The notes under the pieces: model-generated
The model's database searches: none
What the model was told of the DNA's origin: nothing
What the model saw: only the letters and a program-made list of their open reading frames with translations
Part shown: piece after piece, positions 3,710 to 58,311 of the stretch
Layout of the letters: each line of letters begins with the position of its first letter
How positions within the stretch are numbered: position 1 is the stretch's first letter
Program-made: the position numbers and the translations under genes
Assembly: GCA_050011875.1 (NCBI GenBank)
Contig: JBEKIG010000013.1
Coordinates: 4,928-68,927 of the forward strand
Reading direction: 5' to 3'
DNA: 64,000 nt
Source of the DNA: Nitrososphaeria archaeon
Lineage (GTDB): Archaea; Thermoproteota; Nitrososphaeria; JACIWG01

Positions 3710-3940
3710 TTAATGAAGTCTTTTTCTCCTCAAAATGTAATAACCAAAGAGAAAGATAGCATAAATAACAGAGATTAAAAAAACGAGAATTGGAATAACA
3801 CCCTTGAGAAATAAAGAAATAAAGAGAAAAGCGGAAAGAACATAAGCAAGATACTTACACCAATCTGGAAAAATCTTTTCAGACATTATAATACATTTGA
3901 TGCATAGTAAAATAGTCATTAAAACCTTTCCAAATAACAA
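3710..3940 (-). CDS. small hydrophobic membrane protein, hypothetical
   Basis: 76-aa ORF with two or three hydrophobic helices. No recognisable family. Confidence 0.35.
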   Translation of the reverse strand: MLFGKVLMTILLCIKCIIMSEKIFPDWCKYLAYVLSAFLFISLFLKGVIPILVFLISVIYAIFLFGYYILRRKRLH

Positions 3941-4086
3941 AAAAAGTACTAGAGATAATAGAATAACATTTTATTTTACGTTATCATAAAACAGTAAGTT
4001 AGCTCTAAAAAATATGATAGTGGCTAGTTGTGAAGATTACATACTCTTATGAGTGAGAAGGTTCTTTCTAATACATAAGTGATAAA

Positions 4087-4353
4087 ATGATCTTTATCAG
4101 TTTAATGAAGTTCAGGCAGAAGCCTACAAAGGAATTGATTGCTGAAAACGCGAAGCTCTTTGAAAAAGATAAGAAAGAAGGAGTGAAGTTTCTTGGAATA
4201 TATTATACACTAGGCAGATACGACGCAGTCGGCATAATTGAAGCACCTGATGAAAAAACAGCTATGAAAGCCGCACTCAGAAGAGGAGGAATGTTCGCAG
4301 CTGAGACGCTCGTCGCAGTACCAGCTGAAGAAGCTAGAAAACTCGTCGAATAA
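4087..4353 (+). CDS. GYD domain protein
   Basis: 88 aa with the characteristic ...LGRYDAVGIIEAPDEKTAMKAAL... core of the GYD family. Confidence 0.75.
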   Translation: MIFISLMKFRQKPTKELIAENAKLFEKDKKEGVKFLGIYYTLGRYDAVGIIEAPDEKTAMKAALRRGGMFAAETLVAVPAEEARKLVE

Positions 4354-4773
4354 GCAAGACACACCTTCCCAACATTTTTTTTGATATATTATAACGCATA
4401 GGACATTTGAGTTAGTTTATTCCTAGCCTTTTCTGTTGAAGTTCTTTAACTATCTTCTCTATCTCTGAAACCTTAGAAATCTCCTTTTCAACTTCACTTA
4501 AGCGGTTTTTATGCTGATATTCTCATTTCTTAAACTAATATTTTCAGTAGCATGATATTTGATATCATATATGACCCTATAATTGTAATTGTCATAACCA
4601 ACCTCGAACAAAGTCTTAATAAAACAGAAATCTCAGGAACTTCAAGACGCTTTAAAAGATTTGGAAGAAAACTCCATTCGTAGTGTGTTTAGAAATCTCT
4701 CTAAGGATAATGCTCTCTAATCAGAATGATTTTTAAGGCGCCAATACCAAGAAGGTTCACCGCAGTTTGGCAT

Positions 4774-5109: not shown

Positions 5110-5678
5110 GTTCTCATCTTTCTAATTTCTCTGAACAGTCTTCTAAAGGGCTTCTTAGTGTAGGCTACTAAAAAGGCTAGGACAATACGTAGCAATCTCA
5201 CATTTGCCTTGGCTAATATTTCGCCATCGAACCTTGTTTCTTGGAAGTCCGGCTCCAATGTAAAAGATAACCTCGAATCAACATCCAGTATAGAAAATAG
5301 AGCCCACATGTAACCATATAAAACCGCTGTGTCAGCTGGGCTGTCTAAACCGACCTTCAGGTGACAGGAGAGCATCTTAAATGTAATGGATTTTCGTACA
5401 GCATTAAATAAATGAGTTAGTTGTGGAAATGAATCCCGTAAAGCTGAAATAACATCCAAAATTTTGGGTCTCTCAAACTTTGCGGCCACCTTCTTCCTTT
5501 CCGCAGTAGGCACAATCCTATGAATCATTGTAAGACGTAACCACTTAACTTTAAAGTCGCCCTTTATAGAAGGACCTTTTTTAGAGAATTGTACGATAAC
5601 CTGTAATGGTATAAGTAGAAAGCCTGCTATCAGTAGAAAAAAAATAAGTAGGATGACGGCGAGAACTTCGTAGATCAA
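5106..5678 (-). CDS. DUF2953 (YtfI-like) N-terminally anchored protein
   Basis: 190 aa with an N-terminal TM helix. It is placed directly after a GerW/YtfJ gene, as in the Bacillus ytfI-ytfJ pair. The family call comes from gene order and architecture. Confidence 0.5.
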   Translation of the reverse strand: MIYEVLAVILLIFFLLIAGFLLIPLQVIVQFSKKGPSIKGDFKVKWLRLTMIHRIVPTAERKKVAAKFERPKILDVISALRDSFPQLTHLFNAVRKSITFKMLSCHLKVGLDSPADTAVLYGYMWALFSILDVDSRLSFTLEPDFQETRFDGEILAKANVRLLRIVLAFLVAYTKKPFRRLFREIRKMRT

Positions 5679-5698
5679 ATAGACCTATCTTTAATTCT

Positions 5699-6082
5699 TC
5701 ACTCTTTCTTATGTTCCTCTTCTTTTTTGCTTTCTTTCATTTTATCCATCATTGAAGTTGCGATTTCGCCTATCATCTTTCCGATCGGCCCTGGAGTTGA
5801 AATGTTCATGACTTTTATTCCTTCAGGTCCTGGGACTCCCTTGAATATGACTATTATTGAGGTGGGCACAACTCCTGTTCCTCCTCCTCCGCCACTTCCT
5901 TTACCACCTTCACCACGTTCCCCTTTTCCTTCACCCGATCCTGCGCCAAATCCAACTCCGAACTTCTTTAATGGAATAATTATCTTGTCCTCGAATTCCA
6001 TTGGTTCGCCAACTACATTTTTTGTAGCTAACAGTTTAAGAAGTTCTTCGACCATCGTCTTTATGTTTTCTTCTGCGCTCAT
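5699..6082 (-). CDS. GerW/YtfJ family protein
   Basis: VGEPMEFEDKIIIPLKKFGVGFGAGSGEGKG...GGGGGTGVVPTSIIVI is the canonical GerW (Spore_YtfJ) pattern. Confidence 0.75.
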   Translation of the reverse strand: MSAEENIKTMVEELLKLLATKNVVGEPMEFEDKIIIPLKKFGVGFGAGSGEGKGERGEGGKGSGGGGGTGVVPTSIIVIFKGVPGPEGIKVMNISTPGPIGKMIGEIATSMMDKMKESKKEEEHKKE

Positions 6083-8643: not shown

Positions 8644-9417
8644 TTATTGTGTACCAACTACGTTGACCGTTGTCTTTATCGTAAGGTTTTCGCCTGTAAC
8701 TCCGATTATTAGTGTGTACGTTCCAGGTGTTATGTTTACGTTAAAATGTGTGTCTGTTGCTGCTTGCCAGTAGAGAGTACCTATCTGTCCCTGAAGACCA
8801 GGCTGAGGCGTTTGGGTCGAGTGCCCAAGCTGATACGCTAACCCCTTGACCTGCTGGTTTTGGGAATTAAAAACATCCAACTCCACGTACGAGGCGTTGA
8901 CCTCCTGTGCCCCTGTCAGATTGAAGCGTACCCCAAGGTAACCGTTAGGATTCACAGACGTACCTGAAAGTGTAACCTCCAGTTTCAGCCCTGAGGTTTC
9001 GTTGGTCAGCGTTGGACCGAGGAACTCGGCGGGTGGCGAAGTTGTAGTGGTCGTCGAAGTAGTCGTGGATGAAGGGGTTGGAGTTGAGCCGTAAACATAG
9101 GGCAGAACCATTACGGTTGCTATCACGAGAACCGCCAGTACTATTACGACCGTGAGAATTATTGCATTTTTTGAGTTTTTCTTGTTACCAATAAGAACAA
9201 ACTCGTAAGCGGACAGGGAGCCGAAGGTTAGAGTAAGCACTACAAAAGTAGCCAACAACACGTTTAGATTTATAGGGGACATAATGCTTGGGTTCTTTAT
9301 ACTTGGGTTCTTTAGGTGTTGAATTAGAGAGAATTCAGAGAATGATATGGAGTCGAATATTATCGTCAACACTGCAAAGGTCACCAACAACATGTTTCTT
9401 GTCTTCGAAGATGGCAT
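8644..9417 (-). CDS. membrane-anchored surface protein with Thr-rich linker and C-terminal beta-rich domain
   Basis: 257 aa with three N-terminal hydrophobic segments, a TPTPSSTTTSTTTTTSPP linker and a beta-strand-like C-terminal half. The start lies 4 nt after the stop of regulator 9422-9844, suggesting co-transcription. It contains a 15-nt tandem duplication (9287-9316, IKNPSIKNPS). Confidence 0.6.
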   Translation of the reverse strand: MPSSKTRNMLLVTFAVLTIIFDSISFSEFSLIQHLKNPSIKNPSIMSPINLNVLLATFVVLTLTFGSLSAYEFVLIGNKKNSKNAIILTVVIVLAVLVIATVMVLPYVYGSTPTPSSTTTSTTTTTSPPAEFLGPTLTNETSGLKLEVTLSGTSVNPNGYLGVRFNLTGAQEVNASYVELDVFNSQNQQVKGLAYQLGHSTQTPQPGLQGQIGTLYWQAATDTHFNVNITPGTYTLIIGVTGENLTIKTTVNVVGTQ

Positions 9418-9421
9418 TATC

Positions 9422-9844
9422 TTACATCTTCTTCAGCGCTCTAATCACTTCATACAGTGATGTTGCAACCCCTACCAAGCACACCGCTAAAGCGAAACCA
9501 TATGTGGACGTTATCTGAGGCGGCCTCAGATAGGTTAACAGAATCAGAAATGCTACAGCGAAGAACGCCATGTACGCCGTCTGGAATGGTATAAGCGTCC
9601 TCCTCACCCTGACTATGTTCTCAAAAACAACCTTATCCACCACATAGCCTTTGTCCTGTTCTCTGATGAGCCCAGCCTCGAGAAGCTTGTTGACGTGATA
9701 TGATGCAACGGACGAGGAGCCGAACCCAAGGCCCTCCTGCACGCCACTGATACCTACAGGCTTTCCCTCCTTGAATATGAAACGGTAAACTCTGAGAGTA
9801 GTACCCCTCAAAACCTTTGCTTCATCCTCTTCCTTCGCAGCCAA
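9422..9844 (-). CDS. membrane-tethered winged-helix transcription regulator (wHTH plus 2 C-terminal TM helices), paralog 1
   Basis: 140 aa. The N-terminal ~75 aa look like a wHTH (YRFIFKEGKPVGISGVQEGLGFGSSSVASYHVNKLLEAGLIRE). The C-terminal part has two hydrophobic helices. Apparent TTG start. By hand count, 98 of 140 residues are identical to 51082-51504. Confidence 0.75.
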   Translation of the reverse strand: MAAKEEDEAKVLRGTTLRVYRFIFKEGKPVGISGVQEGLGFGSSSVASYHVNKLLEAGLIREQDKGYVVDKVVFENIVRVRRTLIPFQTAYMAFFAVAFLILLTYLRPPQITSTYGFALAVCLVGVATSLYEVIRALKKM

Positions 9845-9891
9845 CAGTCTTCAACCTTATGATAAACGATAACATATTAAGTCTTACCAAA

Positions 9892-9926
9892 TTCTAAAAT
9901 TAGAAGAACGCTTTCTAAAATTAGAA
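9892..9926. promoter_or_regulatory. two exact copies of the inverted-repeat box TTCTAAAATTAGAA (putative operator of the wHTH-TM regulator)
   Basis: The boxes are at 9892-9905 and 9913-9926, 21 nt apart start to start. Half-sites TTCTAA and TTAGAA are reverse complements separated by 2 nt. The same box occurs at 51553-51566. Confidence 0.55.
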
Positions 9927-9958
9927 AACTGCGCTTTCCCGTCTTTCTATTAATAGCG

Positions 9959-9965
9959 CTATATC
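9959..9965 (+). promoter_or_regulatory. TATA-like element CTATATC upstream of the MSEYK gene
   Basis: It is centred about 34 nt upstream of the ATG at 9996. An identical heptamer sits at the same distance before the paralog (51599-51605). Confidence 0.35.
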
Positions 9966-9995
9966 CAGGTTTATGCGTACTGGCTGACGAGCACA

Positions 9996-10829
9996 ATGTC
10001 GGAATATAAAAGGCAGATAGTTGTAGGAGTTTTCGTAGCTGCTGTAATAGCGTTGGTTCTAGCAGGAGGAGCAATCTACCTCCTTCCACTGCAACCCATG
10101 CGGACGACATCCACAACACTTATCACTCCTACAACTACAGCTACAGGCACAGCTACAACAACTGCTACAGGAACTTACAGTAGTACATCTACGTTTGGTG
10201 GTTCACCTACTACTACACCGTCAACTTCGTCTGGTACGACGATTACTCTCGGTCCCCCTTATACATCTGTTACAACTATTACTACTGCAGGTACGACTAC
10301 ACCTATTACAATTACGTTCACTCCTACGATTACATCTATTACATCTACAGCTGGAACAGCTACTACAAGTGGTTCTACGACTATAACGTCCGGACCTACT
10401 GTAACTGTTACTGTGACAGAAATATTAGGTACTGTGGTATCGCCTGGAACTACTGAAACAGTTACTGTGACAGAACAAGTTGGCACTGCGACTGAGACCG
10501 TGACAACAACTGAGACACAAGGTTTAACGACAACTGTAACATCAACCACAACAGTAACAAGTGTAGGAGGGCTTGAAATAACAAACGCCTATGCTAATAG
10601 CACGACTCAGGTGGTTGTAAGCGTCATGAACACAGGGAGCACAGACCAGACCATTACAGGCATACTCGTAAACGGAAAATCTCTTTCAAGCGTGAACGGT
10701 GGCACTTCAAACCCAAGCCTACCTATCAAGGTGGCAGCGAATGCATCGCTAACCATCAACCTAACCTTCAGCTCTCCACTATCATCGAACACAATATATT
10801 TCGTAACAATTCAAACCAGCACAAGTTGA
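9996..10829 (+). CDS. signal-anchored Thr-rich surface protein (MSEYK family), paralog 1
   Basis: MSEYKRQIVVGVFVAAVIALVLAGGAIYLLPLQP anchor, about 150 aa of T/S/G/P linker, and a conserved C-terminal domain ...MNTGSTDQTITGILVNGKSLSSVNGGTSNPSLPI...LTFSSPL. Confidence 0.7.
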   Translation: MSEYKRQIVVGVFVAAVIALVLAGGAIYLLPLQPMRTTSTTLITPTTTATGTATTTATGTYSSTSTFGGSPTTTPSTSSGTTITLGPPYTSVTTITTAGTTTPITITFTPTITSITSTAGTATTSGSTTITSGPTVTVTVTEILGTVVSPGTTETVTVTEQVGTATETVTTTETQGLTTTVTSTTTVTSVGGLEITNAYANSTTQVVVSVMNTGSTDQTITGILVNGKSLSSVNGGTSNPSLPIKVAANASLTINLTFSSPLSSNTIYFVTIQTSTS

Positions 10830-11758
10830 TCCAAAGGAGTAATGATACGATCAAACAATCGGTCGATAAAAGCTCCTATAAGATAGCTTTTGTCGCCCTT
10901 ATAGTTACAGCTGCAGTTGTTGGAAGTACTATCTACTCTAACCCAACATTATTCAAAAGTTCAACAATCACTTCAACAATGACTACAACGACAACGAAAA
11001 CTCAGTATATAACTACCGATAAGAATGTGTATAATGTTGGTGATACTTGTCATTGGACGGCAACAGGTCTGATTTCAGGCACAACCTATTCGATTTACTG
11101 GTCTGAATATTTTTCAAACTCCCAAAGTTACTACTCTCTTAGCACTTGGAATGCTACCTCATCTTCGATGATAGGTACTTTTACTGTTACAAACGACATG
11201 CAAGGAGGCGGAGATCTAATATTAAACGAAGGTTATGGAGCTTCTCCAGACGCAAACATCGTTATTTGGATTAACTCGCTATCATCAACAACTTCTATAT
11301 CTACCATTCCGATAACAACTACAACAGGAACAACTACTTCTAATATTACTTCCGGAACCAATACTACGACAACCGTAATTTCAGTGCTGAATGTGTCCAG
11401 CTTAATCTCATCCGATGAATCGTTAAACGCTGTGATGGAGTTCCAGGGATGGAACGCTACCCAAATGGCATCCTATGGAGTTTATACACAGCTTAGATAC
11501 CTGAAAGAAGAAAATGGATGGCTCAACATATACACGGTCGACCCTAATACGACTAAAATATTGAGTTTGGAAGCGAGCGAATCTCTTCAGATTCCTGACC
11601 CCACAGTAAAACTGCCGGGGTACTTTTGGTTCATAGACATTAACGCAGATGTAAAAACAGTTGCACCAGGCAACTTTCCAGAGGCAGGTACATATTACGA
11701 CTTCTGGGTAGACGCCGTTAACGCCACAGTAGTGTACTCAGAAGGGCCGGTCCCGTAG
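10826..11758 (+). CDS. signal-anchored secreted two-domain protein, translationally coupled to 9996-10829
   Basis: The TTG start overlaps the upstream stop by 4 nt. One N-terminal TM helix is followed by two globular regions separated by a Thr-rich linker. No family recognised. Confidence 0.6.
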   Translation: MIQRSNDTIKQSVDKSSYKIAFVALIVTAAVVGSTIYSNPTLFKSSTITSTMTTTTTKTQYITTDKNVYNVGDTCHWTATGLISGTTYSIYWSEYFSNSQSYYSLSTWNATSSSMIGTFTVTNDMQGGGDLILNEGYGASPDANIVIWINSLSSTTSISTIPITTTTGTTTSNITSGTNTTTTVISVLNVSSLISSDESLNAVMEFQGWNATQMASYGVYTQLRYLKEENGWLNIYTVDPNTTKILSLEASESLQIPDPTVKLPGYFWFIDINADVKTVAPGNFPEAGTYYDFWVDAVNATVVYSEGPVP

Positions 11759-12912: not shown

Positions 12913-13413
12913 TCAAGGATTGCCAACATTCCGCCGTGATGACATCCTCTTGGCGATCCACCTAATGAGTAGCATGGACGCTCCCATGAACAGCGAAATA
13001 AAAGATCCCTGCCCTATGGAGTAGCCAAGAGACTGGCCAAGGTAAAGGTATGAAACCACTCCGAAAGAAATGAAGGCAGATATCATCCAGATCAGGATGA
13101 ACACGTTGGAGATGGAGTTGGCGACCCCAGTCTTCCTCTGACCCGCTTGGTCTCTAGCAGCTGCACTCGTCTCTATGATTCGGACCGCCACCAAGGCTTC
13201 CTTCCCTTCATCGGAAAGCCGATAGTTCCCTTCAGGATCGAGGACAATCAACCCTTCCAGTTTCTTCAGGTGGTAGTCCAGGTTGCCGCTGCTTGAGATT
13301 CCCAGCTTATTCTTCAGCTTTCCAAAGCTCAGGGGAGTGGACTCAAGAACTTCCAGAACCCTGATTCGCGTAGGATGAGCGATCTTCTCAAAGAGCTCGG
13401 CTGAGCTGGACAT
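12913..13413 (-). CDS. ArsR-type wHTH regulator fused to C-terminal transmembrane helices
   Basis: IAHPTRIRVLEVLESTPLSFGKLKNKLGISSSGNLDYHLKKLEGLIVL is a classic ArsR/SmtB-like HTH. The C-terminal ~60 aa form 2-3 hydrophobic helices. Confidence 0.75.
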   Translation of the reverse strand: MSSSAELFEKIAHPTRIRVLEVLESTPLSFGKLKNKLGISSSGNLDYHLKKLEGLIVLDPEGNYRLSDEGKEALVAVRIIETSAAARDQAGQRKTGVANSISNVFILIWMISAFISFGVVSYLYLGQSLGYSIGQGSFISLFMGASMLLIRWIAKRMSSRRNVGNP

Positions 13414-50452: not shown

Positions 50453-50929
50453 ATGGATAAGATAAAGATCCTTTTCCTATGCACCCATAACTCAGCGCGA
50501 TCCCAAATGGCTGAAGGATTTCTTAGACACTTCTATGGAGAAAGGTATGAAGCATTCAGCGCAGGCTCAAAACCGACACGTGTCCATCCTCTTGCCATAA
50601 AGGTGATGTCTGAAGTGGGGATAGACATTTCGAAACATACGTCTAAGAGCATCGAAGAGTTCCGGAACAAGGACATTGACGTAGTTGTAACCGTGTGCCG
50701 TAGCAGTGCAAAGGAGGTCTGTCCGTTTTGCTCTTCACCGATACTTGGAAGTAGACCGGAGATAGTAGCCTCGACCGTGCCAAGCGCTCGGAAGTATATA
50801 GAACACGGTTTCAGCGACCCTTCTGAAGTTTATGGAAGTGATGAGGAAAGGACTGAAGCCTTCAGACGCGTGAGGGATGAAATAGCTAGTTGGATTAAAG
50901 ATACTTTTGCGGACCTCGGCGATCTTTAA
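50453..50929 (+). CDS. arsC: arsenate reductase, LMW-PTPase (thioredoxin-coupled) family
   Basis: ILFLCTHNSARSQMAEG (CX5R P-loop), ...AFSAGSKP... and ...VVVTVC... 158 aa. Confidence 0.85.
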   Translation: MDKIKILFLCTHNSARSQMAEGFLRHFYGERYEAFSAGSKPTRVHPLAIKVMSEVGIDISKHTSKSIEEFRNKDIDVVVTVCRSSAKEVCPFCSSPILGSRPEIVASTVPSARKYIEHGFSDPSEVYGSDEERTEAFRRVRDEIASWIKDTFADLGDL

Positions 50930-51081: not shown

Positions 51082-51504
51082 CTATACTTTCCTTAACGCT
51101 CTTGTAACTTCGTATAATGAGGTCGCAAGTCCGACAAAGATCACCGTTAAAGAGAAGGCATAGGTGGACGTTATTTCAGGTGGTCTCAGGTAGGTCAGCA
51201 GGATCAGGAATGCCAGTAAGAAGAATATGGCGTACGTGGTCTGTAAGGGTATAAGCGTCCTTCTCACCCTGATCACATTTTCGAACATCACCCTGTCTAC
51301 GACGTAGCCTTCATCCTGTTGCCTGATGAGGCCCGCGTCAAGGAGCTTGCTGATATGGTATGATGCGAGTGAGGATGTGCTAAATCCGAGGCCCCGTTGC
51401 ACGTCATGGACGCCAATGGGCTTCCCCTCCTTGAACATAAAGCGATAGACCTTGAGAGTAGTGCCCTTCAATACGTCTGCTTCAGCCTTTTCCGCTGTAC
51501 TCAA
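51082..51504 (-). CDS. membrane-tethered winged-helix transcription regulator (wHTH plus 2 C-terminal TM helices), paralog 2
   Basis: 140 aa, collinear with 9422-9844 (98 of 140 identical by hand count). Apparent TTG start, as in paralog 1. Confidence 0.75.
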   Translation of the reverse strand: MSTAEKAEADVLKGTTLKVYRFMFKEGKPIGVHDVQRGLGFSTSSLASYHISKLLDAGLIRQQDEGYVVDRVMFENVIRVRRTLIPLQTTYAIFFLLAFLILLTYLRPPEITSTYAFSLTVIFVGLATSLYEVTRALRKV

Positions 51505-51552
51505 AGTCTTTCCAACATTGATGGACCAGCATTCAATTTAAACCTTACTCCA

Positions 51553-51598
51553 TTCTAAAATTAGAACACAGTCTTCCATCATCAATCTAAAATTAGTA
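51553..51598. promoter_or_regulatory. inverted-repeat boxes TTCTAAAATTAGAA (51553-51566) and ATCTAAAATTAGTA (51585-51598)
   Basis: The first box is identical to the two boxes at 9892-9926. It lies 48 nt from the regulator start codon (47 nt in the paralogous locus). The second box abuts the CTATATC TATA-like element. Confidence 0.55.
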
Positions 51599-51605
51599 CT
51601 ATATC
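51599..51605 (+). promoter_or_regulatory. TATA-like element CTATATC upstream of the MSEYK gene (paralog 2)
   Basis: It is centred about 35 nt upstream of the ATG at 51637. The same heptamer and spacing occur at 9959-9965. Confidence 0.35.
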
Positions 51606-51636
51606 GTTGCTCACCTTTACCTTAAGCCGTGGAAAA

Positions 51637-52314
51637 ATGTCAGAATATAAGAAGCAGATCGCTGCAGGAGCTTTGACGGCTGTCGTGATAGCGTTAATTT
51701 TGGCAGGTGGAGCAAGCTATCTTTTCCCACTTCAGCCCACGCAGACGACCTCCACAATAATTAACCATTCCTCTGCAGCTGCAGCCACAGCGTCTACCAC
51801 TAAGGCTACAAGCGCTGCTATTACATCTATACCTCAGACAACGTCGTCAGGAACTACCTTCACGACGTCTACGACATATTTAGGCACTACGACAACGATA
51901 TATTTACCTCCGACCATGACTCTACCCACTAATAATGGCACTACGATAATTACAAACGGCACTATGACATATACAATAACTCCTCCTATCACCACGGTGA
52001 CTACGACAATTGGACCGATTGTAACTGTAACCGTGACCCAAAACCTCATAAAAGATATTGAGATAACATACGTGAACTTCAACGCCAGCATCCCAACTCA
52101 TGTGTTCGTAGGCGTCAAGAACGCCGGCACCACGGACCAGACCGTCACAGAAGTACTCGTAAACGGAATACCGTTATCAAGCGTGAACGGAGGTACATCA
52201 AATCCAAGCCTGCCCATTACAATAGCAGCAGGTAGATCACAGGAGATCACCCTAACCTTCAGCTCGCCACTGCCATCAGGAACATACTTCATAACAATTC
52301 TCCCCGGTGATTGA
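51637..52314 (+). CDS. signal-anchored Thr-rich surface protein (MSEYK family), paralog 2
   Basis: MSEYKKQIAAGALTAVVIALILAGGASYLFPLQP..., a Thr-rich linker, and a conserved C-terminal domain ...KNAGTTDQTVTEVLVNGIPLSSVNGGTSNPSLPI...LTFSSPL. Confidence 0.7.
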   Translation: MSEYKKQIAAGALTAVVIALILAGGASYLFPLQPTQTTSTIINHSSAAAATASTTKATSAAITSIPQTTSSGTTFTTSTTYLGTTTTIYLPPTMTLPTNNGTTIITNGTMTYTITPPITTVTTTIGPIVTVTVTQNLIKDIEITYVNFNASIPTHVFVGVKNAGTTDQTVTEVLVNGIPLSSVNGGTSNPSLPITIAAGRSQEITLTFSSPLPSGTYFITILPGD

Positions 52315-53242
52315 TACGCATCAGAATCTATTGGAAGGAGCCGTGCCGAAGGCTCAGGTTGTTTTGTTATTGGCCATACTTTTGGTTGGAGCAGTCGGCG
52401 CCTACTATGTTGTACAGGAAGAACTGCCAAAGAATAGTAACCCTTTGACTACTACTTCGACCTCGGGCACATCAACGTCCGCTCCGGTAGACGCAGGCCC
52501 GCTAACCGTAGTTTCAGTTAGTCTTCTTCGGCCCTATAACCCGGGTGGACCGACAATTGAAGTCATCCTGCAGAACAAGGCAAACAACCCAGTGGTTAGC
52601 CTTCAAACGGTATTGTCATTATCGGGACGCAACTACACGTACGTTTTCGACGACGTTTCTTCAAGCAATCCGCTGTTGACCAATCAGGACGCATCTCAGA
52701 CAGCCACTCTGATCGGTCCTGCCGGATTTGAAACAAATCAAACGTACCCGATGGAGATACGAGGCACTCTGCAAAATGGATCCTTGTTCGATTACGTAAC
52801 TCCTGTGACAATAGCCCAATACTCCAATCAGCTCGTGGCGTCCGGAGGAAACGGCAATCTCCAACTTACCATGGTCCTCGGAAAAACCGTGTACAGTTTA
52901 GGCGAACCTGTTAACCTAACTTTGACCATCACCAACATCAGCAATCAGACAATAAACTTTATGCACTCAGGATTGGATTTTGATTTTCGAGTTTACAACG
53001 GCACAAACAACGTCGTGTACCAGTGGTCAAATTTCAGAGGCATCGCTCAATTCATAATGATCGTGCCGCTTCACGCCGGAGAGAGCAGGTCGGCCAACTT
53101 CACTTGGCTGCAGACATGCAATTTCAACGCCTCAGTTGAAGGAGACCCAGTCTCACCAGGGACCTACAACATAATTGGCCAAACTGGCTCAGTGTACGGT
53201 TTACAGACGACGCCGATACAACTCACAATCGTCAACCCTTAG
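52307..53242 (+). CDS. signal-anchored secreted protein with C-terminal BsuPI-like (proteinase-inhibitor) beta-sandwich
   Basis: The GTG start overlaps the upstream stop by 8 nt. C-terminus: VNLTLTITNISNQTINFMHSGLDFDFRVYNGTNNVVYQWSNFRGIAQFIMIVPLHAGESRSANFTW. It follows the BsuPI pattern (sG..yDF.V.d..g..vw.wS......q.....l..GE.....w). Confidence 0.55.
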   Translation: MIDTHQNLLEGAVPKAQVVLLLAILLVGAVGAYYVVQEELPKNSNPLTTTSTSGTSTSAPVDAGPLTVVSVSLLRPYNPGGPTIEVILQNKANNPVVSLQTVLSLSGRNYTYVFDDVSSSNPLLTNQDASQTATLIGPAGFETNQTYPMEIRGTLQNGSLFDYVTPVTIAQYSNQLVASGGNGNLQLTMVLGKTVYSLGEPVNLTLTITNISNQTINFMHSGLDFDFRVYNGTNNVVYQWSNFRGIAQFIMIVPLHAGESRSANFTWLQTCNFNASVEGDPVSPGTYNIIGQTGSVYGLQTTPIQLTIVNP

Positions 53243-53756: not shown

Positions 53757-56700
53757 CTATGATGTCTTTGGATGGTCGATTCGGACCCGGTCATGCTTAC
53801 CTGCTTTCCGCCTCGGCAATACAACCCTCCAAAGGATTACGATTACCGCTAAGATAACCGCTAAGATAATAACTATCAAAATGGACGTGTAAACCCAGTT
53901 TATCGAGAAGCTTGCCTGCACGCTCTCAGCAGAGTTCACCACAACACTAACTTCAGTTTCGCTTGAAGACGTTGCACCAGACCAGCCGTCAAACTTGAAC
54001 AGGAAAAACGCAGGACTAGCTGCAAGCTGAACAGTCGAACCCAAAGGCACAAACAGCGTCCTATTACTCGCACCACCCACCTTACCAGCAAGCGAGGCAG
54101 AGCTGTAGGAAACACTTCCGAAACTCGAAGAAACAACAGAGAGACCAGGATAGAACGCTGCGCTTTCAACGATAGGATCCTTGACCGTAACAGTGAACGG
54201 ATTACTCACCCCCCCATACGAGCCGACCCCTGAACCGTTCCATAACTCGAACTGCCAACCACCATTTGAAGCAGCAGAAAGCTGAACCTGCTCACTGGAA
54301 TTAAACCAATCCGTCAAAGGAGACACGAAACCACCCTGCTGGCTGTTGGAAAGGACCTTAACATAATACTGGTGGTAGTAGAAAGGAGACAAGACGACGG
54401 CCGAGCTCACCGAACCTGTGGTTGCCTGCGCAAGGACCGACCATCTCTCGTTCGAAGAAGCATAAGCAACGCTTGCAAAACTAAACGTACTGCCCGAGTC
54501 TGCCCAAGCTGTCCCCTGCGTGACACCAATCAGTGAAGTCGACGGCGATCCAAGCGAAGAGAAGTTCAACTCCAAAGAACCTGGGTTCCCCCCGCCGGAT
54601 ACGCTGTAGCTATAAACAATGGTGTACTGGTGATAGTAGACAAGGGTCATTGAAACAGCTGCGTTCACACTGCCGGAGCTAGAGCTATTGGTGTACCAAC
54701 GCTCAGATGAGCCAGACCCCTGAAGAGGATTCGGCAAGCTGAATGAAGTGCCTGCGTCAAGCCAATTGGAACTTAGGGTCGCGTTTATCGGAAAAGCCGC
54801 TGACACTCCGAAAGCTGTCCCCGACAACAACGGAGAAGTAGGATTCCCGCCACCATTGATGACATATCCTACTGAGATGTCGAATTGGTGGTAGTATTGG
54901 AAGGTCGCGGTGGTAGGTCCCGAGACAGCCCCTGCGTCGGTCTGAGACGTAATCCACCTTTCAGATGAATTAGAGCTGGAGAGAGGGTTAGTGACCGACC
55001 AAGATGAACCATAATCAAACCAGTAGGCTGTAGGTATGCTCGTTATGGTAGGCGAAAACGCCACACCATTCTGCAAACCTGACAACAGCGGAACGGCCGG
55101 CGAACCACCTCCAGACACAGAATACGCCAGAGTCCAAGCTACCTGAAAGTAATACGGAACAACTACCACAGACCCAGAAACAGTTCCCGACGTTTCGTTA
55201 GTGGCCATCCACCTTGTGTTTGAATTCGACCCTGATAGCAAGCCTGTGAACGAATAGGATGAACTCGCGTCTGTCCAGTCAGTGAAATTCGCCACCCCTT
55301 GGGATTGTGATCCGAACTTGGTGTAGGAGACGGTCGGAGCCGTGTAGCCCGACTGATTAGAGTTCATAATGTTGAAGCCAAACAGAACGTAGTACTGGTC
55401 ATAGTATGTGAAAAGAACGGACTGGGCGGCGGAAACGGTTCCTGAGGTCACATCCTGAGTGTACCATCTCTGCACGCTACTCGACCTCTGTAAGGGGTTT
55501 GAAACAGACCAGAGCTGTCCGACGTCGGACCAATAGGCCGTGGGTGAGCCGGAAAGGCTAACAGCAGCCGCCGAGCCGAACTGGGTTAGGGCAAGGCTGG
55601 GCGCAGTAGGACCTCTTCCCCCCACTGTCGTATAGCCGGAAGTCAACCTGTACTGGTGGTAGTATGTCGCAGAAAACAACGTACTAGAGTTAACCATGCC
55701 AGTCGGAGACTTAGTGGCCCACCGTTCGTTTACGTACGATCCGGGCAACGGATTCTGAAAGGAATACAATGAGCCGGCGTCCACGAAGGCCAAGAAACCG
55801 GGCGTAATGGATACAGATGACCCGAATTCGCTGACATTCATGCTTGGCTGTGAGTAACCGCTGCCACCGTTTGCGACAGCATAGAGGAAGGATACGCGAA
55901 ACTGGTGGAAATATACGAAGTTCAACGTTGTACCGTTCGTGGGAGCAGTGCCGCTAGTTTTATTTTGTGTGTCCCAGATCTCTATCGAAGTTGAGCCCTG
56001 TAACAGGCCGTTCACGCTCCACGGAGATCCGCTGTCCATGTAGTAGGTGGTAGAATTAGTGGAAAGCTGGATGATGTGCTGAATCCCGCCGGAATAGTAG
56101 ATGAAGAATGGTGGAGAATATCCACTTCCACCACCTTGAACTGAATAATTTACGTTAACTGTGGCAGGACTATATCCTGTGATAAACAGATACGAGTCAG
56201 AAGCCTCCGTGGCGTTATGGGATGATAGGTACTGCAATGTTTTCGGAACCGTGTAGACGACAGGACCACTCGTGGAAGCCACGAACAACGTTTGGCCAGT
56301 GCTCGGCACCCATTCCTCCATCCACATCCAGGCGGAGGATTTTGCGAAGTCGTTTTCCCAATAGGTGACATTTGCCTCTTCTCCGTAATAGGCGGAGGAG
56401 TGCCACCATTCCGTCATAAGCCCGGTGAAGAAACCGTTACTGTTTTCTGGCGATGAAGCTAAGCCCACGAAAACGGAAGAGCCCTCCTGGTTGAACATCT
56501 TTACGGCCCCTGCCCCCGTGTTATAATCATATGCTTGCATCACGACGTTGCCGCCAGAAAAGAAAAGGTTAAGGAGGACTGTATCCCCCTGTTTCACGGT
56601 CCCTGAGAAGGACGATAGTCCGACTCCGCTTGCTGGGTAGATTGAATTACCACTTGGGTCAAAGACTTCGTAATTCATGCTAAAGCCCGATGCGTAGCCG

Positions 56701-57233
56701 CCAACCAGATTAGGCCAATGCCAAGAAAGGCCCACCTGATACCAATACCCCGTATCAGTAAGGCCATCCAGATCGTAGCCCGGTCCGTATCCGTTGCTGT
56801 CCGACTGAGCCACAGCGGTGACGTTGTAGGCCATACTTGTGAAGTTCTGGGTGAAAGTTAACCCCAGCTGCTCGTCGTAAATCGCGGATGGTTGATTCTC
56901 AACCGGGTAATCCTGGTTGTTTACAGTAGACAGCTCCAAACCAGCCAATCGATGGCCTTGCGATTGACCCGCCGGAGAATCAGAGCTGAAAGATTCTGGT
57001 ACGTTTTGACGACACAACGAGCAAGAGTAAGATCCATCCGAACCCAGTCCAGTTGAAATGTTAACACCACCTGAAGAGGGATTAATGACGGAGGAAGTTG
57101 CTCCAAAAACGCCAACATGAGGCGCTGTCCAACCAAGAGCGACAAGCATTACAATTAACAGAATGCAGAAACCTAATCCCTTGGTAATCCTTCGAACTGG
57201 GCAACCATGAATCTTAATCAAAGCCAGTTTCAA
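53757..57233 (-). CDS. 1158-aa C-terminally anchored, repeat-rich surface protein with an N-terminal concanavalin-like (thermopsin/eqolisin-like?) domain
   Basis: N-terminal signal or anchor, a ~190-aa domain (aa ~125-310), seven tandem ~84-86-aa modules, two InlB-B-repeat-like modules (...GGWQFELWNGSG..., ...FKFDGWSGATS...), then a C-terminal TM helix and basic tail. Visibly G+C-rich. Start codon uncertain (TTG in the track). Confidence 0.85.
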   Translation of the reverse strand: MKLALIKIHGCPVRRITKGLGFCILLIVMLVALGWTAPHVGVFGATSSVINPSSGGVNISTGLGSDGSYSCSLCRQNVPESFSSDSPAGQSQGHRLAGLELSTVNNQDYPVENQPSAIYDEQLGLTFTQNFTSMAYNVTAVAQSDSNGYGPGYDLDGLTDTGYWYQVGLSWHWPNLVGGYASGFSMNYEVFDPSGNSIYPASGVGLSSFSGTVKQGDTVLLNLFFSGGNVVMQAYDYNTGAGAVKMFNQEGSSVFVGLASSPENSNGFFTGLMTEWWHSSAYYGEEANVTYWENDFAKSSAWMWMEEWVPSTGQTLFVASTSGPVVYTVPKTLQYLSSHNATEASDSYLFITGYSPATVNVNYSVQGGGSGYSPPFFIYYSGGIQHIIQLSTNSTTYYMDSGSPWSVNGLLQGSTSIEIWDTQNKTSGTAPTNGTTLNFVYFHQFRVSFLYAVANGGSGYSQPSMNVSEFGSSVSITPGFLAFVDAGSLYSFQNPLPGSYVNERWATKSPTGMVNSSTLFSATYYHQYRLTSGYTTVGGRGPTAPSLALTQFGSAAAVSLSGSPTAYWSDVGQLWSVSNPLQRSSSVQRWYTQDVTSGTVSAAQSVLFTYYDQYYVLFGFNIMNSNQSGYTAPTVSYTKFGSQSQGVANFTDWTDASSSYSFTGLLSGSNSNTRWMATNETSGTVSGSVVVVPYYFQVAWTLAYSVSGGGSPAVPLLSGLQNGVAFSPTITSIPTAYWFDYGSSWSVTNPLSSSNSSERWITSQTDAGAVSGPTTATFQYYHQFDISVGYVINGGGNPTSPLLSGTAFGVSAAFPINATLSSNWLDAGTSFSLPNPLQGSGSSERWYTNSSSSGSVNAAVSMTLVYYHQYTIVYSYSVSGGGNPGSLELNFSSLGSPSTSLIGVTQGTAWADSGSTFSFASVAYASSNERWSVLAQATTGSVSSAVVLSPFYYHQYYVKVLSNSQQGGFVSPLTDWFNSSEQVQLSAASNGGWQFELWNGSGVGSYGGVSNPFTVTVKDPIVESAAFYPGLSVVSSSFGSVSYSSASLAGKVGGASNRTLFVPLGSTVQLAASPAFFLFKFDGWSGATSSSETEVSVVVNSAESVQASFSINWVYTSILIVIILAVILAVIVILWRVVLPRRKAGKHDRVRIDHPKTS
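54381..56168 (-). repeat. seven tandem ~84-86-aa protein modules inside 53757-57233
   Basis: The modules begin near aa 359, 440, 524, 610, 694, 780 and 866. Each has YY(H/F/D)Q(Y/F)...GG(G/S)...P...W.D.GS..S...PL......(E/Q/T)RW......G.V. Confidence 0.8.
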
Positions 57234-57516: not shown

Positions 57517-58311
57517 TTATGCCAACACGTTTGATGGGCTTGAGCGGTTCTCAGGGTTTTTGCGCAGTTCTCTTGTTGTAAACCACGCTACAATTACAGA
57601 AATCAGGGATAACGCAAAAACTAAAGCTTCAAAACCGAGTAGTGTGAAACTCTGAGCAAAGGGAACCAAGAAATCTACAAAACCCATGGGGAGGGCGAGT
57701 AGTAAATAACGCTTCTTATTGACATAGGCAGACATTATGCAAAGGTAGCCCCATGCGAAATGAAAAAAGGTCGAGGAGATCCTCTCAACAACACCCAGGG
57801 CCATCGTTCCAATTACTTGGGAAGCGGGAGAAAAAAGTCCAGGTGAACTCTCGACTAACTGAGCATAAACGGTCTGTGCTAGTGGTGTATTTGTGGAGAG
57901 GATAATGTAATAAGCCACAAGATTAATTATTGGAAGCACACCGAGCAGGACAACGTTTTCCCAAAAAGCCAACCCTAAACCATATGCCTCGGCGTCTTTC
58001 CCCGTAAGCATGCCGCGAGAAATCACATACCGTGCGACTAGGTAAGCGCCTCCAACCTCAAAAACAACAGTTTGGAGACCCACGTATATCCCATAACCAA
58101 CGCTTTGCGCACCAAAATACCCCACAACTTTTGAGGCAGTCGGTATTTGCACTGCGTACTTAAGGGCTATAGCACCGCCATATGCTAATAGCGAGTAGAG
58201 GAAGACAAGCCCCCTAAAGCTACGTTTATAGCGCCAGTACACAACCAAACCCGAAGTAATTAAGATGACAATCAAGGGCTGAAGGATATACAAAATATCG
58301 ATATTTTGCAT
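57517..58311 (-). CDS. seven-TM membrane protein, hypothetical
   Basis: 264-aa hydrophobic ORF. No confident family assignment. Confidence 0.55.
   Translation of the reverse strand: MQNIDILYILQPLIVILITSGLVVYWRYKRSFRGLVFLYSLLAYGGAIALKYAVQIPTASKVVGYFGAQSVGYGIYVGLQTVVFEVGGAYLVARYVISRGMLTGKDAEAYGLGLAFWENVVLLGVLPIINLVAYYIILSTNTPLAQTVYAQLVESSPGLFSPASQVIGTMALGVVERISSTFFHFAWGYLCIMSAYVNKKRYLLLALPMGFVDFLVPFAQSFTLLGFEALVFALSLISVIVAWFTTRELRKNPENRSSPSNVLA

Follow-up and report, generated by a model that had tools for sequence, protein, structure and literature searches.

A predicted membrane-bound transcription regulator and a divergently encoded surface protein form a recurrent gene pair in Nitrososphaeria and Bathyarchaeia

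Two loci in the window (the whole stretch of archaeal DNA analysed here, 64 kb long) each pair a small putative regulator gene with a divergent gene for a Thr-rich protein that starts with MSEYK, and the second of them, module B, raises the question of whether it is a true copy of the first and which of its parts are conserved. Module B comprises regB (51082..51504, minus strand, TTG start), encoding a predicted membrane-anchored winged helix-turn-helix (wHTH) regulator of 140 aa; MSEYK-B (51637..52314, plus strand, 225 aa); and gene3B (52307..53242, plus strand), which overlaps MSEYK-B by 8 nt and encodes an N-anchored protein with an unassigned domain and a BsuPI domain. Independent public gene calls gave the same 140-, 225-, and 311-aa genes. 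The corresponding genes of module A are regA (9422..9844, minus strand), MSEYK-A (9996..10829, plus strand, 277 aa), and gene3A (10826..11758, plus strand), which encodes an N-anchored Thr-rich protein and overlaps MSEYK-A by 4 nt.

BLASTP aligned regB with regA without gaps and with 98 identities in 140 positions (70%, E 4e-78), the same count as in an earlier note on this DNA. By region, the identities amounted to 5/11 in the N-terminal tail, 43/59 in the wHTH, 16/22 in the first transmembrane helix (TM1), 7/8 in the outer loop, and 16/23 in TM2; the TM helices thus exceed the tail in conservation, as the note had stated, but not the wHTH. It had also described the MSEYK paralogs as keeping the anchor and the C-terminal domain while their Thr-rich linkers differ in length and sequence, and this was reproduced: the two proteins have residues 1-40 in common, as well as some 85 residues at the C-terminal end (tblastn, 63% over 82 aa, E 2e-21). 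In the nucleotide comparison that it had proposed, two collinear blocks were found, B51089-51810 with A9429-10169 (68% over 750 nt) and B52096-52300 with A10605-10812 (74% over 210 nt), so the similarity is not one of low-complexity Thr codons. Although roughly half of each MSEYK gene codes for the Thr-rich linker, a chance neighbourhood or a low-complexity similarity is already refuted by these E-values, by the linker falling outside the similarity blocks, and by the recurrence of the linkage in more than 35 independent loci. Module B was confirmed as a true second copy of a conserved archaeal regulator/surface-protein gene pair.

More than 160 homologues of the regulator were found, the named ones all from Nitrososphaeria or Bathyarchaeia. 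The comparison covered 45 copies from MAGs of both groups; 40 genomic loci plus 3 extra copies were gathered. A gene with an MSEYK-type anchor lies beside the regulator in 36-39 of the 45 copies, which come from other genomes, arranged as 32 divergent pairs, 4 tandem pairs, and 2-3 looser ones; the partner was not detected for six copies (L003, L024, L035, L038-40). Genomes hold up to 6 copies, with 4-6 in soil and peat Nitrososphaeria. The modular, non-chance character of the unit, which the earlier note had made dependent on such linkage in related genomes, is borne out by this recurrence and by a common intergenic palindrome. Judged from these comparisons, the conserved unit is the 140-aa regulator (a predicted wHTH plus two-helix hairpin), a putative palindromic operator, and, of the partner, no more than the initial ~31 residues. 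The proposed division into a conserved core and a variable cargo thus stands for regulator and operator; it does not extend to the full MSEYK protein or to a slot for a third gene. On the same grounds, the regulator/surface-protein pair is widespread in uncultured Nitrososphaeria and Bathyarchaeia. The neighbours of both modules are metabolic and transport genes. A functional partnership on the ArsR/ArsC pattern was also considered, as an arsC-like gene is convergent with regB; it was rejected, since regB lacks Cys, arsC is missing from module A, and this gene order is not kept elsewhere.

The AlphaFold2 model of regB (pLDDT 83) featured a wHTH with a wing and helices spanning residues 71-104 and 113-139. 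The protein can be divided into the wHTH (aa 12-70), a juxtamembrane RVRR, TM1 (~83-104), the outer loop LRPPEITS (105-112), and TM2 (~113-135). The two predicted TM stretches, at aa 83-104 and 113-135, are 22-23 residues long, contain no charged residues, and were modelled as helices; basic flanks (RVRR and RALRK) mark the cytoplasmic ends of the hairpin. Only residues 71-82 (~12) separate the wing from TM1, and there is no ligand-binding domain. The best reading of regB is therefore a minimal transmembrane transcription regulator (TTR), with a predicted cytoplasmic wHTH joined directly to a two-helix hairpin that has an 8-residue outer loop; the two elements by which a TTR is defined, a DNA-binding domain and at least one TM segment in one polypeptide, are both predicted in it.

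Assignment of the wHTH to a known family was less distinct. Pfam HTH_20 matched regA with 27.7 bits (cut-off 27, passed by 0.7) and regB with 20.9 bits (E 3.5e-4), below the cut-off, and NCBIfam HTH_metalloreg reached 19.8 (regA) and 13.3 bits (regB) against a cut-off of 55. The best Foldseek matches were the wHTH domains of IclR, ArsR, and MarR proteins, at E of only ~0.01; a PDB sequence search with the regulator profile returned nothing below E 0.07, and no Pfam match to Trans_reg_C (OmpR/PhoB-type wHTH) was found in regB at E <= 0.1. Within the family, all of 26 sequences have S45, A47, Y49, H50, and L54 in the recognition helix, and 25 of them have K53; the conserved hairpin residues are P86, Q88, Y91, F94, F95, R107, P108, Y115, F117, Y131, and E132. 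Regulator-ectodomain fusions were sought among the longer homologues and none was found, the extra length consisting of miscalled N-termini or acidic wing insertions. PADLOC matches were weak and covered the HTH part of Csa3/CARF3 only, and a link to defence systems was therefore rejected.

The intergenic region between regB and MSEYK-B contains two putative operators. O2 (51553..51566) is a 6-2-6 inverted repeat, TTCTAA-AA-TTAGAA, with both arms perfect, and O1 (51585..51598), 32 bp away centre-to-centre, is the degenerate copy ATCTAAAATTAGTA. TATA and BRE positions in both modules were assigned by eye. The probable TATA-like box of MSEYK-B, CTATATC (51599..51605, plus strand), is centred ~35 nt upstream of the ATG and is abutted by O1 in the BRE position; that of regB, TTTAAAT (51536..51542, minus strand), is centred ~35 nt upstream of the TTG, and O2 lies ~21 bp upstream of its centre. 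The operator array of module A (9892..9958) holds exact copies of TTCTAAAATTAGAA at 9892-9905 and 9913-9926 and the degenerate TTCTATTAATAGCG at 9945-9958, which again abuts CTATATC (9959-9965); the equivalent of the regB box is TTAATAT (9874-9880).

The exact 14-mer TTCTAA-AA-TTAGAA occurs three times in the window, always within the two module intergenic regions. When 30 family intergenic regions were scanned, CTA-N4/5-TAG was found at 8.2 per kb against 0.32 per kb in the flanks (26-fold), with 38 occurrences observed, where shuffles averaged 2.7 and never exceeded 10. Flanking half-site bases change across loci while the palindrome is kept, and the O1-equivalent site next to (A/T)TAT(A/T)TAG is retained in most of them. 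The palindrome, TTCTAA-N2-TTAGAA in this genome, is thus conserved as the putative operator of the unit. A regB dimer would bind these 14-bp palindromes in the common 132-bp intergenic region, one of them placed against the MSEYK TATA/BRE and the other some two helical turns upstream of regB's own TATA, a placement suggesting that a membrane-tethered regulator would control both promoters, be it positively or negatively.

In MSEYK-B the anchor (aa 1-31; 51637..51729, plus strand), delimited by the anchor alignment and HMM, consists of MSEYKKQI, a TM helix, and then SYLFP. The family pattern is MSEY[KR][KR]QI, a TM helix on which small residues form a stripe, and Y-x-x-P, ~31 residues in all. 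The small residues fall at positions 11, 15, 19, and 23; among 29 partner anchors, A15 is present in 27 and P31 in 28, and the spacing from the motif to P31 is fixed at 24-25 residues. Applied to the window, the anchor HMM recognised the two MSEYK genes only, although other N-anchored Thr-rich proteins are present, and it found no match in L043-46. A DNA-level signal behind the conserved N-terminus was ruled out: synonymous positions vary freely, and the conservation therefore lies at the protein level.

The remainder of the protein behaves differently. The Thr/Ser-rich linker (51730..52056, plus strand) is conserved neither in length nor in sequence and shows no DNA similarity to module A. 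It is followed by a C-terminal beta-sandwich of ~85 aa (52057..52314, plus strand, with the stop codon), modelled by AlphaFold2 with seven strands and pLDDT 92. An exhaustive HMM search with this C-domain retrieved 83 representative relatives, whereas a word-indexed homology search returned 3 fragments only. The domain was found next to the regulator in L001, L002, L004, and L005, the closest relatives, and not in others; elsewhere in the family it is replaced by unrelated ectodomains that have no Pfam match, and Pfam found one PepSY match, one Cep192_D3 match, and essentially nothing else in 28 partner proteins. By sequence, then, all of the partner beyond the anchor varies across the family, the MSEYK C-domain included. 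MSEYK-B is best read as a surface protein of N-in, C-out topology, built from a family-specific anchor, a stalk that is rich in Thr and probably glycosylated, and a small beta-sandwich as its head. A clean recombination breakpoint was sought between the modules of L004 and L005, but with ~86% identity throughout they show no sharp one.

Identity matrices of regulator and anchor were correlated (r 0.52, Mantel p ~2e-4), a correlation confounded by shared phylogeny, and residue-level covariation between the regulator loop/tail and the partner juxtamembrane motifs, looked for by eye, appeared as a clade-level correlation only. Small residues arranged in a stripe are characteristic of helices that pack against each other. 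Since only the anchor is conserved, co-diverges with the regulator, and carries such a stripe, we infer that it may contact the regulator hairpin inside the membrane. We consider it fairly probable that the membrane-tethered regulator controls its own promoter and that of the divergent surface-protein gene, with the partner anchor feeding back within the membrane. The amount or state of the surface protein would then feed back on transcription; alternatively, the variable ectodomain might act as a sensor. A more specific version, in which the hairpin recognises the ~31-residue anchor of its own partner, or this anchor after signal-peptidase cleavage, is put forward tentatively. If true, transcription would be tied directly to one cognate surface protein being inserted into the membrane or secreted, and duplication would yield several insulated regulator/operator/anchor triplets per genome, in a role comparable to that of ECF sigma/anti-sigma pairs. 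A transcription factor that senses a signal anchor or signal peptide within the membrane would represent a signalling principle undescribed in archaea.

It is possible, though we doubt it, that the two genes are an ordinary local regulator-target pair without physical coupling, in which the regulator alone senses the membrane or envelope, the partner's N-terminus is an inherited Sec signal peptide that is cleaved, and the mature partner is released or held at the surface by other means. The anchors resemble Sec signal peptides in their basic n-region and hydrophobic core of ~16-19 residues, and small residues occupy -3/-1 before Tyr27/28 (GGA/SY, ASA/V, AAA/SY); a cleavable signal peptide would leave no stable anchor-hairpin complex. 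The operator evidence requires no protein-protein contact either, and an orphan MSEYK gene in L004, which has a full operator array and no adjacent regulator, points to regulation in trans. Signal peptides normally diverge fast, however, whereas MSEY[KR][KR]QI, the P31 spacing, and the 11/15/19/23 stripe are retained in both Nitrososphaeria and Bathyarchaeia, even though the mature part has been exchanged. The anchor motif is missing from other secreted proteins of the window, and the hairpin lacks a sensor domain while many of its polar and aromatic positions are conserved, which likewise speaks against this reading.

We regard as unlikely a surface-filament or adhesion cassette with MSEYK as a pilin- or FlaF/FlaG-like subunit and the regulator as an ArnR-like membrane-bound activator. 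This possibility is raised by the C-domain, whose best Foldseek matches (E 2e-3 to 4e-3) were the Aap pilin of S. acidocaldarius (8q30, E 2.2e-3) and FlaF/FlaG, with the P. calidifontis type IV pilus (8fk7) also matched. The FlaF/FlaG structures 6pbk, 5tug, and 5tuh gave TM 0.56-0.65, normalised to the query (6pbk and 5tug, TM 0.65 and 22% identity), values to be read with the promiscuous matching of small beta-sandwiches in mind. ArnR binds the flaB, aapF, and upsX promoters (PMC6396743), and membrane-bound regulators lie beside pilin genes in Halobacteria (PMC4858521). FlaF/FlaG and type IV pilin heads, like MSEYK, have an N-terminal hydrophobic helix followed by a small beta-sandwich; however, E-values of ~2e-3 are weak for such a fold, a Thr-rich stalk of ~110 residues separates helix and head, unlike in pilins, and most family members carry a different, unrelated ectodomain. 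No T4P ATPase, platform, or peptidase genes were found near either module, and the class III (prepilin) signal peptide pattern, taken as [KRDE][GA][ALIFQMVED][ILMVTAS]x3, was present in 0/29 anchors.

Regulated intramembrane proteolysis, by which a regulator inactive at the membrane, possibly held there by the partner, would be released by a protease as a soluble factor, seems very improbable. Helix-breaking P86 and R107-P108 are conserved at the hairpin ends, and a gene for a YhfC-type intramembrane metalloprotease (57517-58311) lies 6 kb from module B; however, a gene of this kind is absent from the neighbourhood of module A, linkage of a protease gene to the modules was not seen across loci, and the transmembrane regulators known from archaea and bacteria work while in the membrane (PMC6396743, PMC10269533).

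Archaeal membrane-bound transcription factors are numerous, with 1,384 in 367 of the 404 species surveyed (PMC10269533). ArnR/ArnR1 of Sulfolobus acidocaldarius, membrane-bound one-component activators of the archaellum, are the only archaeal ones that we found with biochemical characterisation (PMC6396743). ArnR shares with regB an N-terminal HTH, two C-terminal TM helices, paralogs within one genome, and promoters with two cis boxes, and its target, like the proposed target of regB, is a gene for an N-terminally membrane-inserted, glycosylated surface protein (PMC6396743). ArnR (arCOG05969) is confined to Sulfolobales and Desulfurococcales and lies in archaellum loci (PMC4858521), in contrast to modules A and B with no T4P genes nearby. 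It also has HAMP-like and sensor domains between HTH and TM, where regB has its ~12 residues; the proposed targets of regB are no prepilins, and a conserved anchor that is cognate to ArnR has not been described.

In bacteria, ToxR/ToxS, TcpP/TcpH, and VtrA/VtrC combine a membrane-bound wHTH regulator with a single-pass partner whose extracytoplasmic domain modulates or stabilises the regulator. This class, reviewed in PMC10269533, resembles the regB unit in its membrane-tethered DNA-binding domain and adjacently encoded single-pass membrane partner. ToxR-like systems have an OmpR/PhoB-type wHTH, one TM helix, a partner-binding periplasmic domain, and a co-transcribed partner, whereas regB has an ArsR/MarR-like wHTH, a predicted TM hairpin without an outer domain, and a divergent partner, so that any partner contact would have to be intramembrane. 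ArsR/SmtB metalloregulators bind metals or metalloids at a Cys/His site (an alpha3 CXC or an alpha5 site). They provide the nearest sequence profile to regB (HTH_20/HTH_5) and some of the nearest folds (6j05, 3f72), and share palindromic operators and a divergent autoregulated arrangement with the regB unit as proposed here; regB, however, has neither a cysteine nor a metal-site motif, and has a TM hairpin in place of the C-terminal dimerisation helix of soluble ArsR.

The regB family would come close to the smallest conceivable membrane-bound regulator, with a wHTH, a hairpin, and no sensor domain. Small as it is, and supplied with an evident target promoter, a clear-cut palindrome as putative operator, and a candidate partner inside the membrane, it would make a tractable model for signalling from the archaeal membrane. 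No genetic system exists for the host groups, and a large share of their surface proteins is uncharacterised; given the latter and the expansion in copy number, the family may organise the expression of much of the variable cell-surface repertoire.

The third gene lies apart from all this. The earlier note was right that gene3B and gene3A are unrelated (best E 0.44) and that gene3B has a BsuPI domain (PF12690, aa 191-289, E 1.5e-12, 47.8 bits against a gathering cut-off of 22.9). A PDB sequence search with gene3B gave a BsuPI entry only, at E 0.22. Its 238 homologues, 60-90% identical, have PF12690 as precomputed Pfam domain, and some are named 'BsuPI-related putative proteinase inhibitor' by NCBI; in three other genomes examined they stand alone in unrelated contexts, with no regulator or anchor gene within 4 kb. 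The cargo slot suggested for the third position was not supported, a tightly coupled downstream gene being found in 4 of 30 modules and in this lineage only. On this distribution, gene3B is a lineage-specific passenger outside the conserved unit, and would be co-transcribed here solely through its capture downstream in this lineage. The C-terminal domain of gene3A is fused to an MSEYK C-domain in P0127.

Module B consisted of the regulator gene regB (51082-51504, minus strand, 140 aa), the divergent surface-protein gene MSEYK-B (51637-52314, plus strand, 225 aa), and a third gene, gene3B (52307-53242, plus strand, 311 aa). Gene models of this locus were identical in the public gene calls of two other assemblies. 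A tblastn search of the window with the module B proteins located module A at 9422-11758. All factual statements of the earlier note held: its figure of 98 identical residues out of 140 between the two regulators was obtained again in a gap-free alignment (E 4e-78), and tblastn and protein alignment confirmed that MSEYK-A and MSEYK-B have residues 1-40 and the last ~85 residues in common, with dissimilar Thr-rich linkers. At the DNA level, two collinear blocks were found, the first covering the regulator, the intergenic region, and the partner's N-terminal anchor (68% over 750 nt) and the second the C-domain (74% over 210 nt); neither the linker nor the third gene gave a DNA match between the modules. 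As had also been noted, gene3A and gene3B were unrelated and gene3B carried a BsuPI domain; this domain scored above the Pfam cut-off. TTG starts were unusually frequent in this lineage, occurring in both regulators (51504 and 9844), gene3A (10826), and roughly one in three partner genes at related loci.

The linkage of regulator and partner was examined in 45 regulator copies, drawn from 40 loci, three extra copies within those loci, and the two window modules. For 32 copies, a gene encoding an MSEYK-type N-terminus lay divergently at a distance of 90-240 bp, and in four (L009, L011, L031, and L034) the partner lay directly upstream on the same strand. The layout was looser in two to three copies (L016, with an intervening secreted-protein gene; L033, with an IS-like insertion; L025b, weak), and no partner was found for six (L003, L024 (contig edge), L035, and L038-40). 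At L033, the IS-like zinc-finger transposase ORF (3757-4644) sat between the MSEYR-anchor gene and the regulator, apparently splitting the module. The conserved stretch of the partners comprised only ~31 residues: M-[SA]-E-[YF]-[KR]-[KR]-[QE]-[IV], followed by a TM helix whose length is fixed and by Y-x-x-P. A15 was present in 27 of 29 anchors, P31 in 28, and G11 in 18, and the small residues at positions 11, 15, 19, and 23 formed a stripe on one face of the helix. Synonymous anchor codons varied freely, which places selection at the protein level. Within the window, an HMM of the anchor matched both MSEYK genes and nothing else; gene3A, gene3B, upA, and the other N-anchored Thr-rich proteins gave no match. 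Ser/Thr- or Pro/Thr-rich linkers followed the anchor, leading to unrelated ectodomains for which no Pfam match was obtained. In L001, the closest MAG (MFD03726.bin.1.205), the MSEYK-B orthologue was split over two reading frames (5379-5865); it is a pseudogene, or the homopolymer-rich Thr linker was misassembled.

Tight coupling to a downstream gene (at most 20 nt of gap or overlap) was seen only in modules A and B, L004, and L005 among the related loci surveyed. The gene3B family gave 238 matches, with full-length homologues 60-90% identical and NCBI labels some of them 'BsuPI-related putative proteinase inhibitor'. Three other genomes carried stand-alone homologues (73%, 72%, and 59% identical), next to helicase/TldD, glycerol-kinase/SMC-like, or polymerase/nitroreductase genes, with no regulator or anchor within 4 kb; elsewhere, only L001 had a homologue (90% identical) beside a regulator. 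The stand-alone homologues therefore indicate that gene3B is a lineage-specific capture behind MSEYK-B. The proposal of a conserved core carrying a variable cargo stood for the regulator, operator, and anchor, and required recasting for the rest: the module is better described as a regulator-operator-anchor unit to which exchangeable parts are added, namely the ectodomain and, where present, a downstream gene.

The 14-nt inverted repeat TTCTAAAATTAGAA (6-2-6) occurred in exact form three times in 64 kb, always in the two module intergenic regions, and each module had one additional degenerate copy. In module B, the predicted site O1 (51585-51598) abutted a CTATATC box whose centre lies ~35 nt before the MSEYK-B ATG. 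The predicted site O2 (51553-51566), 32 bp from O1 centre to centre, was ~21 bp upstream of a TTTAAAT box, which in turn precedes the regB start by ~35 nt. Module A had the same layout with three sites. Across 30 intergenic regions of related loci, the core CTA-N4/5-TAG occurred 38 times (8.2 per kb), compared with 0.32 per kb in the flanking 412 kb and a mean of 2.7 (maximum 10) occurrences in shuffled intergenic regions. The outer half-site bases varied by locus with the palindrome retained (TGTGCTAC-TTTTAGCACA, GGTCTAAAATTTAGACC, AACCTAAACATAGGTT), an example from Bathyarchaeia being TGTTCAA...TTGAACA. Both module B sites precede the presumed TATA boxes, and O1 occupies the BRE position, a placement that fits activation and BRE occlusion alike. 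In L004 (5228-5241 and 6199-7037), an orphan MSEYK gene stood behind a TATA box and a complete array of three operator sites with no adjoining regulator, and an exact operator copy preceded another N-anchored Thr-rich ORF; these arrangements suggest small regulons acting in trans.

The AF2 model of regB (pLDDT 83) featured a wHTH (helices up to residue 56, wing at 60-69), followed by a long first helix (71-104) and a second one (113-139), connected by a loop of 8 residues. No charged residue occurred within 83-104 or 113-135, and these stretches were flanked by RVRR and RALRK, so that, by the positive-inside rule, the wHTH would lie inside, the hairpin in the membrane, and the loop LRPPEITS outside. 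Among 26 family members, G14-T15-T16 near the N-terminus and S45, A47, Y49, H50, and L54 of the recognition helix were invariant, and K53 was present in 25. Many hairpin positions were also conserved (P86, Q88, Y91, F94, F95, R107, P108, Y115, F117, Y131, and E132), which argues that the hairpin is more than a passive tether.

The best-supported reading of these sequences is that a minimal transmembrane transcription regulator binds the palindromes in the shared intergenic region and would control its own promoter together with the promoter of its cognate surface-protein gene. With less confidence, we infer that the partner anchor packs against the regulator hairpin inside the membrane; this contact could provide feedback about how much surface protein is present or what state it is in, or could make the variable ectodomain a sensor. 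A comparable arrangement operates in bacterial ToxR/ToxS-type pairs, except that contact between regB and MSEYK would be made within the membrane. Regulator and anchor identity matrices were correlated (r 0.52, Mantel p ~2e-4), as co-divergence would predict, although shared phylogeny confounds the comparison. In the main rival reading, the anchor makes no contact with the regulator and is simply a cleavable signal peptide that has been conserved; the small residues before Tyr27/28 are as expected at a signal-peptidase site.

Regarding known classes, the regB wHTH was closest to IclR, ArsR, and MarR domains, with weak matches in Foldseek and profile searches. Transmembrane transcription regulators are an already known and widespread class (PMC10269533); ArnR/ArnR1, which combine an HTH with two C-terminal TM helices, are characterised archaeal examples (PMC6396743), and membrane-bound regulators adjoining pilin genes were noted earlier in Halobacteria (PMC4858521). 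Membership of regB in the ArnR family was rejected for lack of a HAMP or sensor region and of archaellum surroundings, a ToxR type for lack of an OmpR-type wHTH and an outer domain, a functional metal-sensing ArsR because regB has no cysteine, and sensor-domain fusions among longer homologues on inspection. In the limited literature searched, we found no published description of the regulator family, operator, or partner anchor, and no functional study of the pair. That regulator, operator, and anchor form a real family is well supported by comparative genomics.

The MSEYK C-domain accompanied the regulator only in L001, L002, L004, and L005 among related loci. An exhaustive profile search gave 83 representatives (30 at E <= 1e-10), most of them small N-anchored proteins with a Thr linker, and the anchor often differed. 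Relatives often carried an additional C-terminal '...GxDYPKAVVIP' segment, found in most distant homologues (P0130-P0161); the window C-domains (52057-52311 and 10563-10826) end ~10 residues short of it. In P0127, the C-domain was fused to a domain resembling the gene3A C-terminus, a Rosetta-stone hint that these ectodomains may work together. The AF2 model was a confident seven-strand beta-sandwich (pLDDT 92), with best PDB matches to the S. acidocaldarius Aap pilin, FlaF/FlaG, and a P. calidifontis pilus (E 2e-3 to 2e-2; TM 0.53-0.65, normalised to the query). A pilin-like reading is only a lead, because none of 29 anchors fitted a class III signal-peptide pattern and no type IV pilus machinery was present among the window neighbours.

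Named homologues came from Nitrososphaeria, Nitrososphaerales, or 'Thaumarchaeota' MAGs, and some from Bathyarchaeia. The window neighbours were ordinary chromosomal genes (P-type ATPase, sugar kinases/isomerases, aldo-keto reductases, CDF transporter, PadR, and an arsC-like gene), with no mobile-element genes among them and no defence-system link in PADLOC. The arsC-like low-molecular-weight phosphatase gene (50453-50929, plus strand; CX5R motif and two further Cys) is convergent to regB and probably unrelated to the module, since regB lacks Cys and module A has no such gene. A wHTH protein of another family (12913-13413, minus strand, 166 aa; DUF7347 and HTH_20/HTH_5, with hydrophobic C-terminal helices) is also membrane-anchored and has no MSEYK-type partner, bringing the transmembrane regulators to three in 64 kb. 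Four nt after regA, on the same strand, a gene (8644-9417, minus strand) encoded a membrane protein of 257 aa that combines a Thr-rich linker with a beta-rich domain; it had a weak, sub-threshold sulfocyanin match (E 7e-4), and its C-domain recurred at L004 8355-8993 and L005 2576-4420 in differing positions. Convergent with gene3B, a gene at 53757-57233 (minus strand) encoded a Ser/Thr-rich protein of 1158 aa that contains internal repeats, has a TM helix at its C-terminus, and matched no Pfam family; the next gene (57517-58311, minus strand) encoded a YhfC-type intramembrane metalloprotease.
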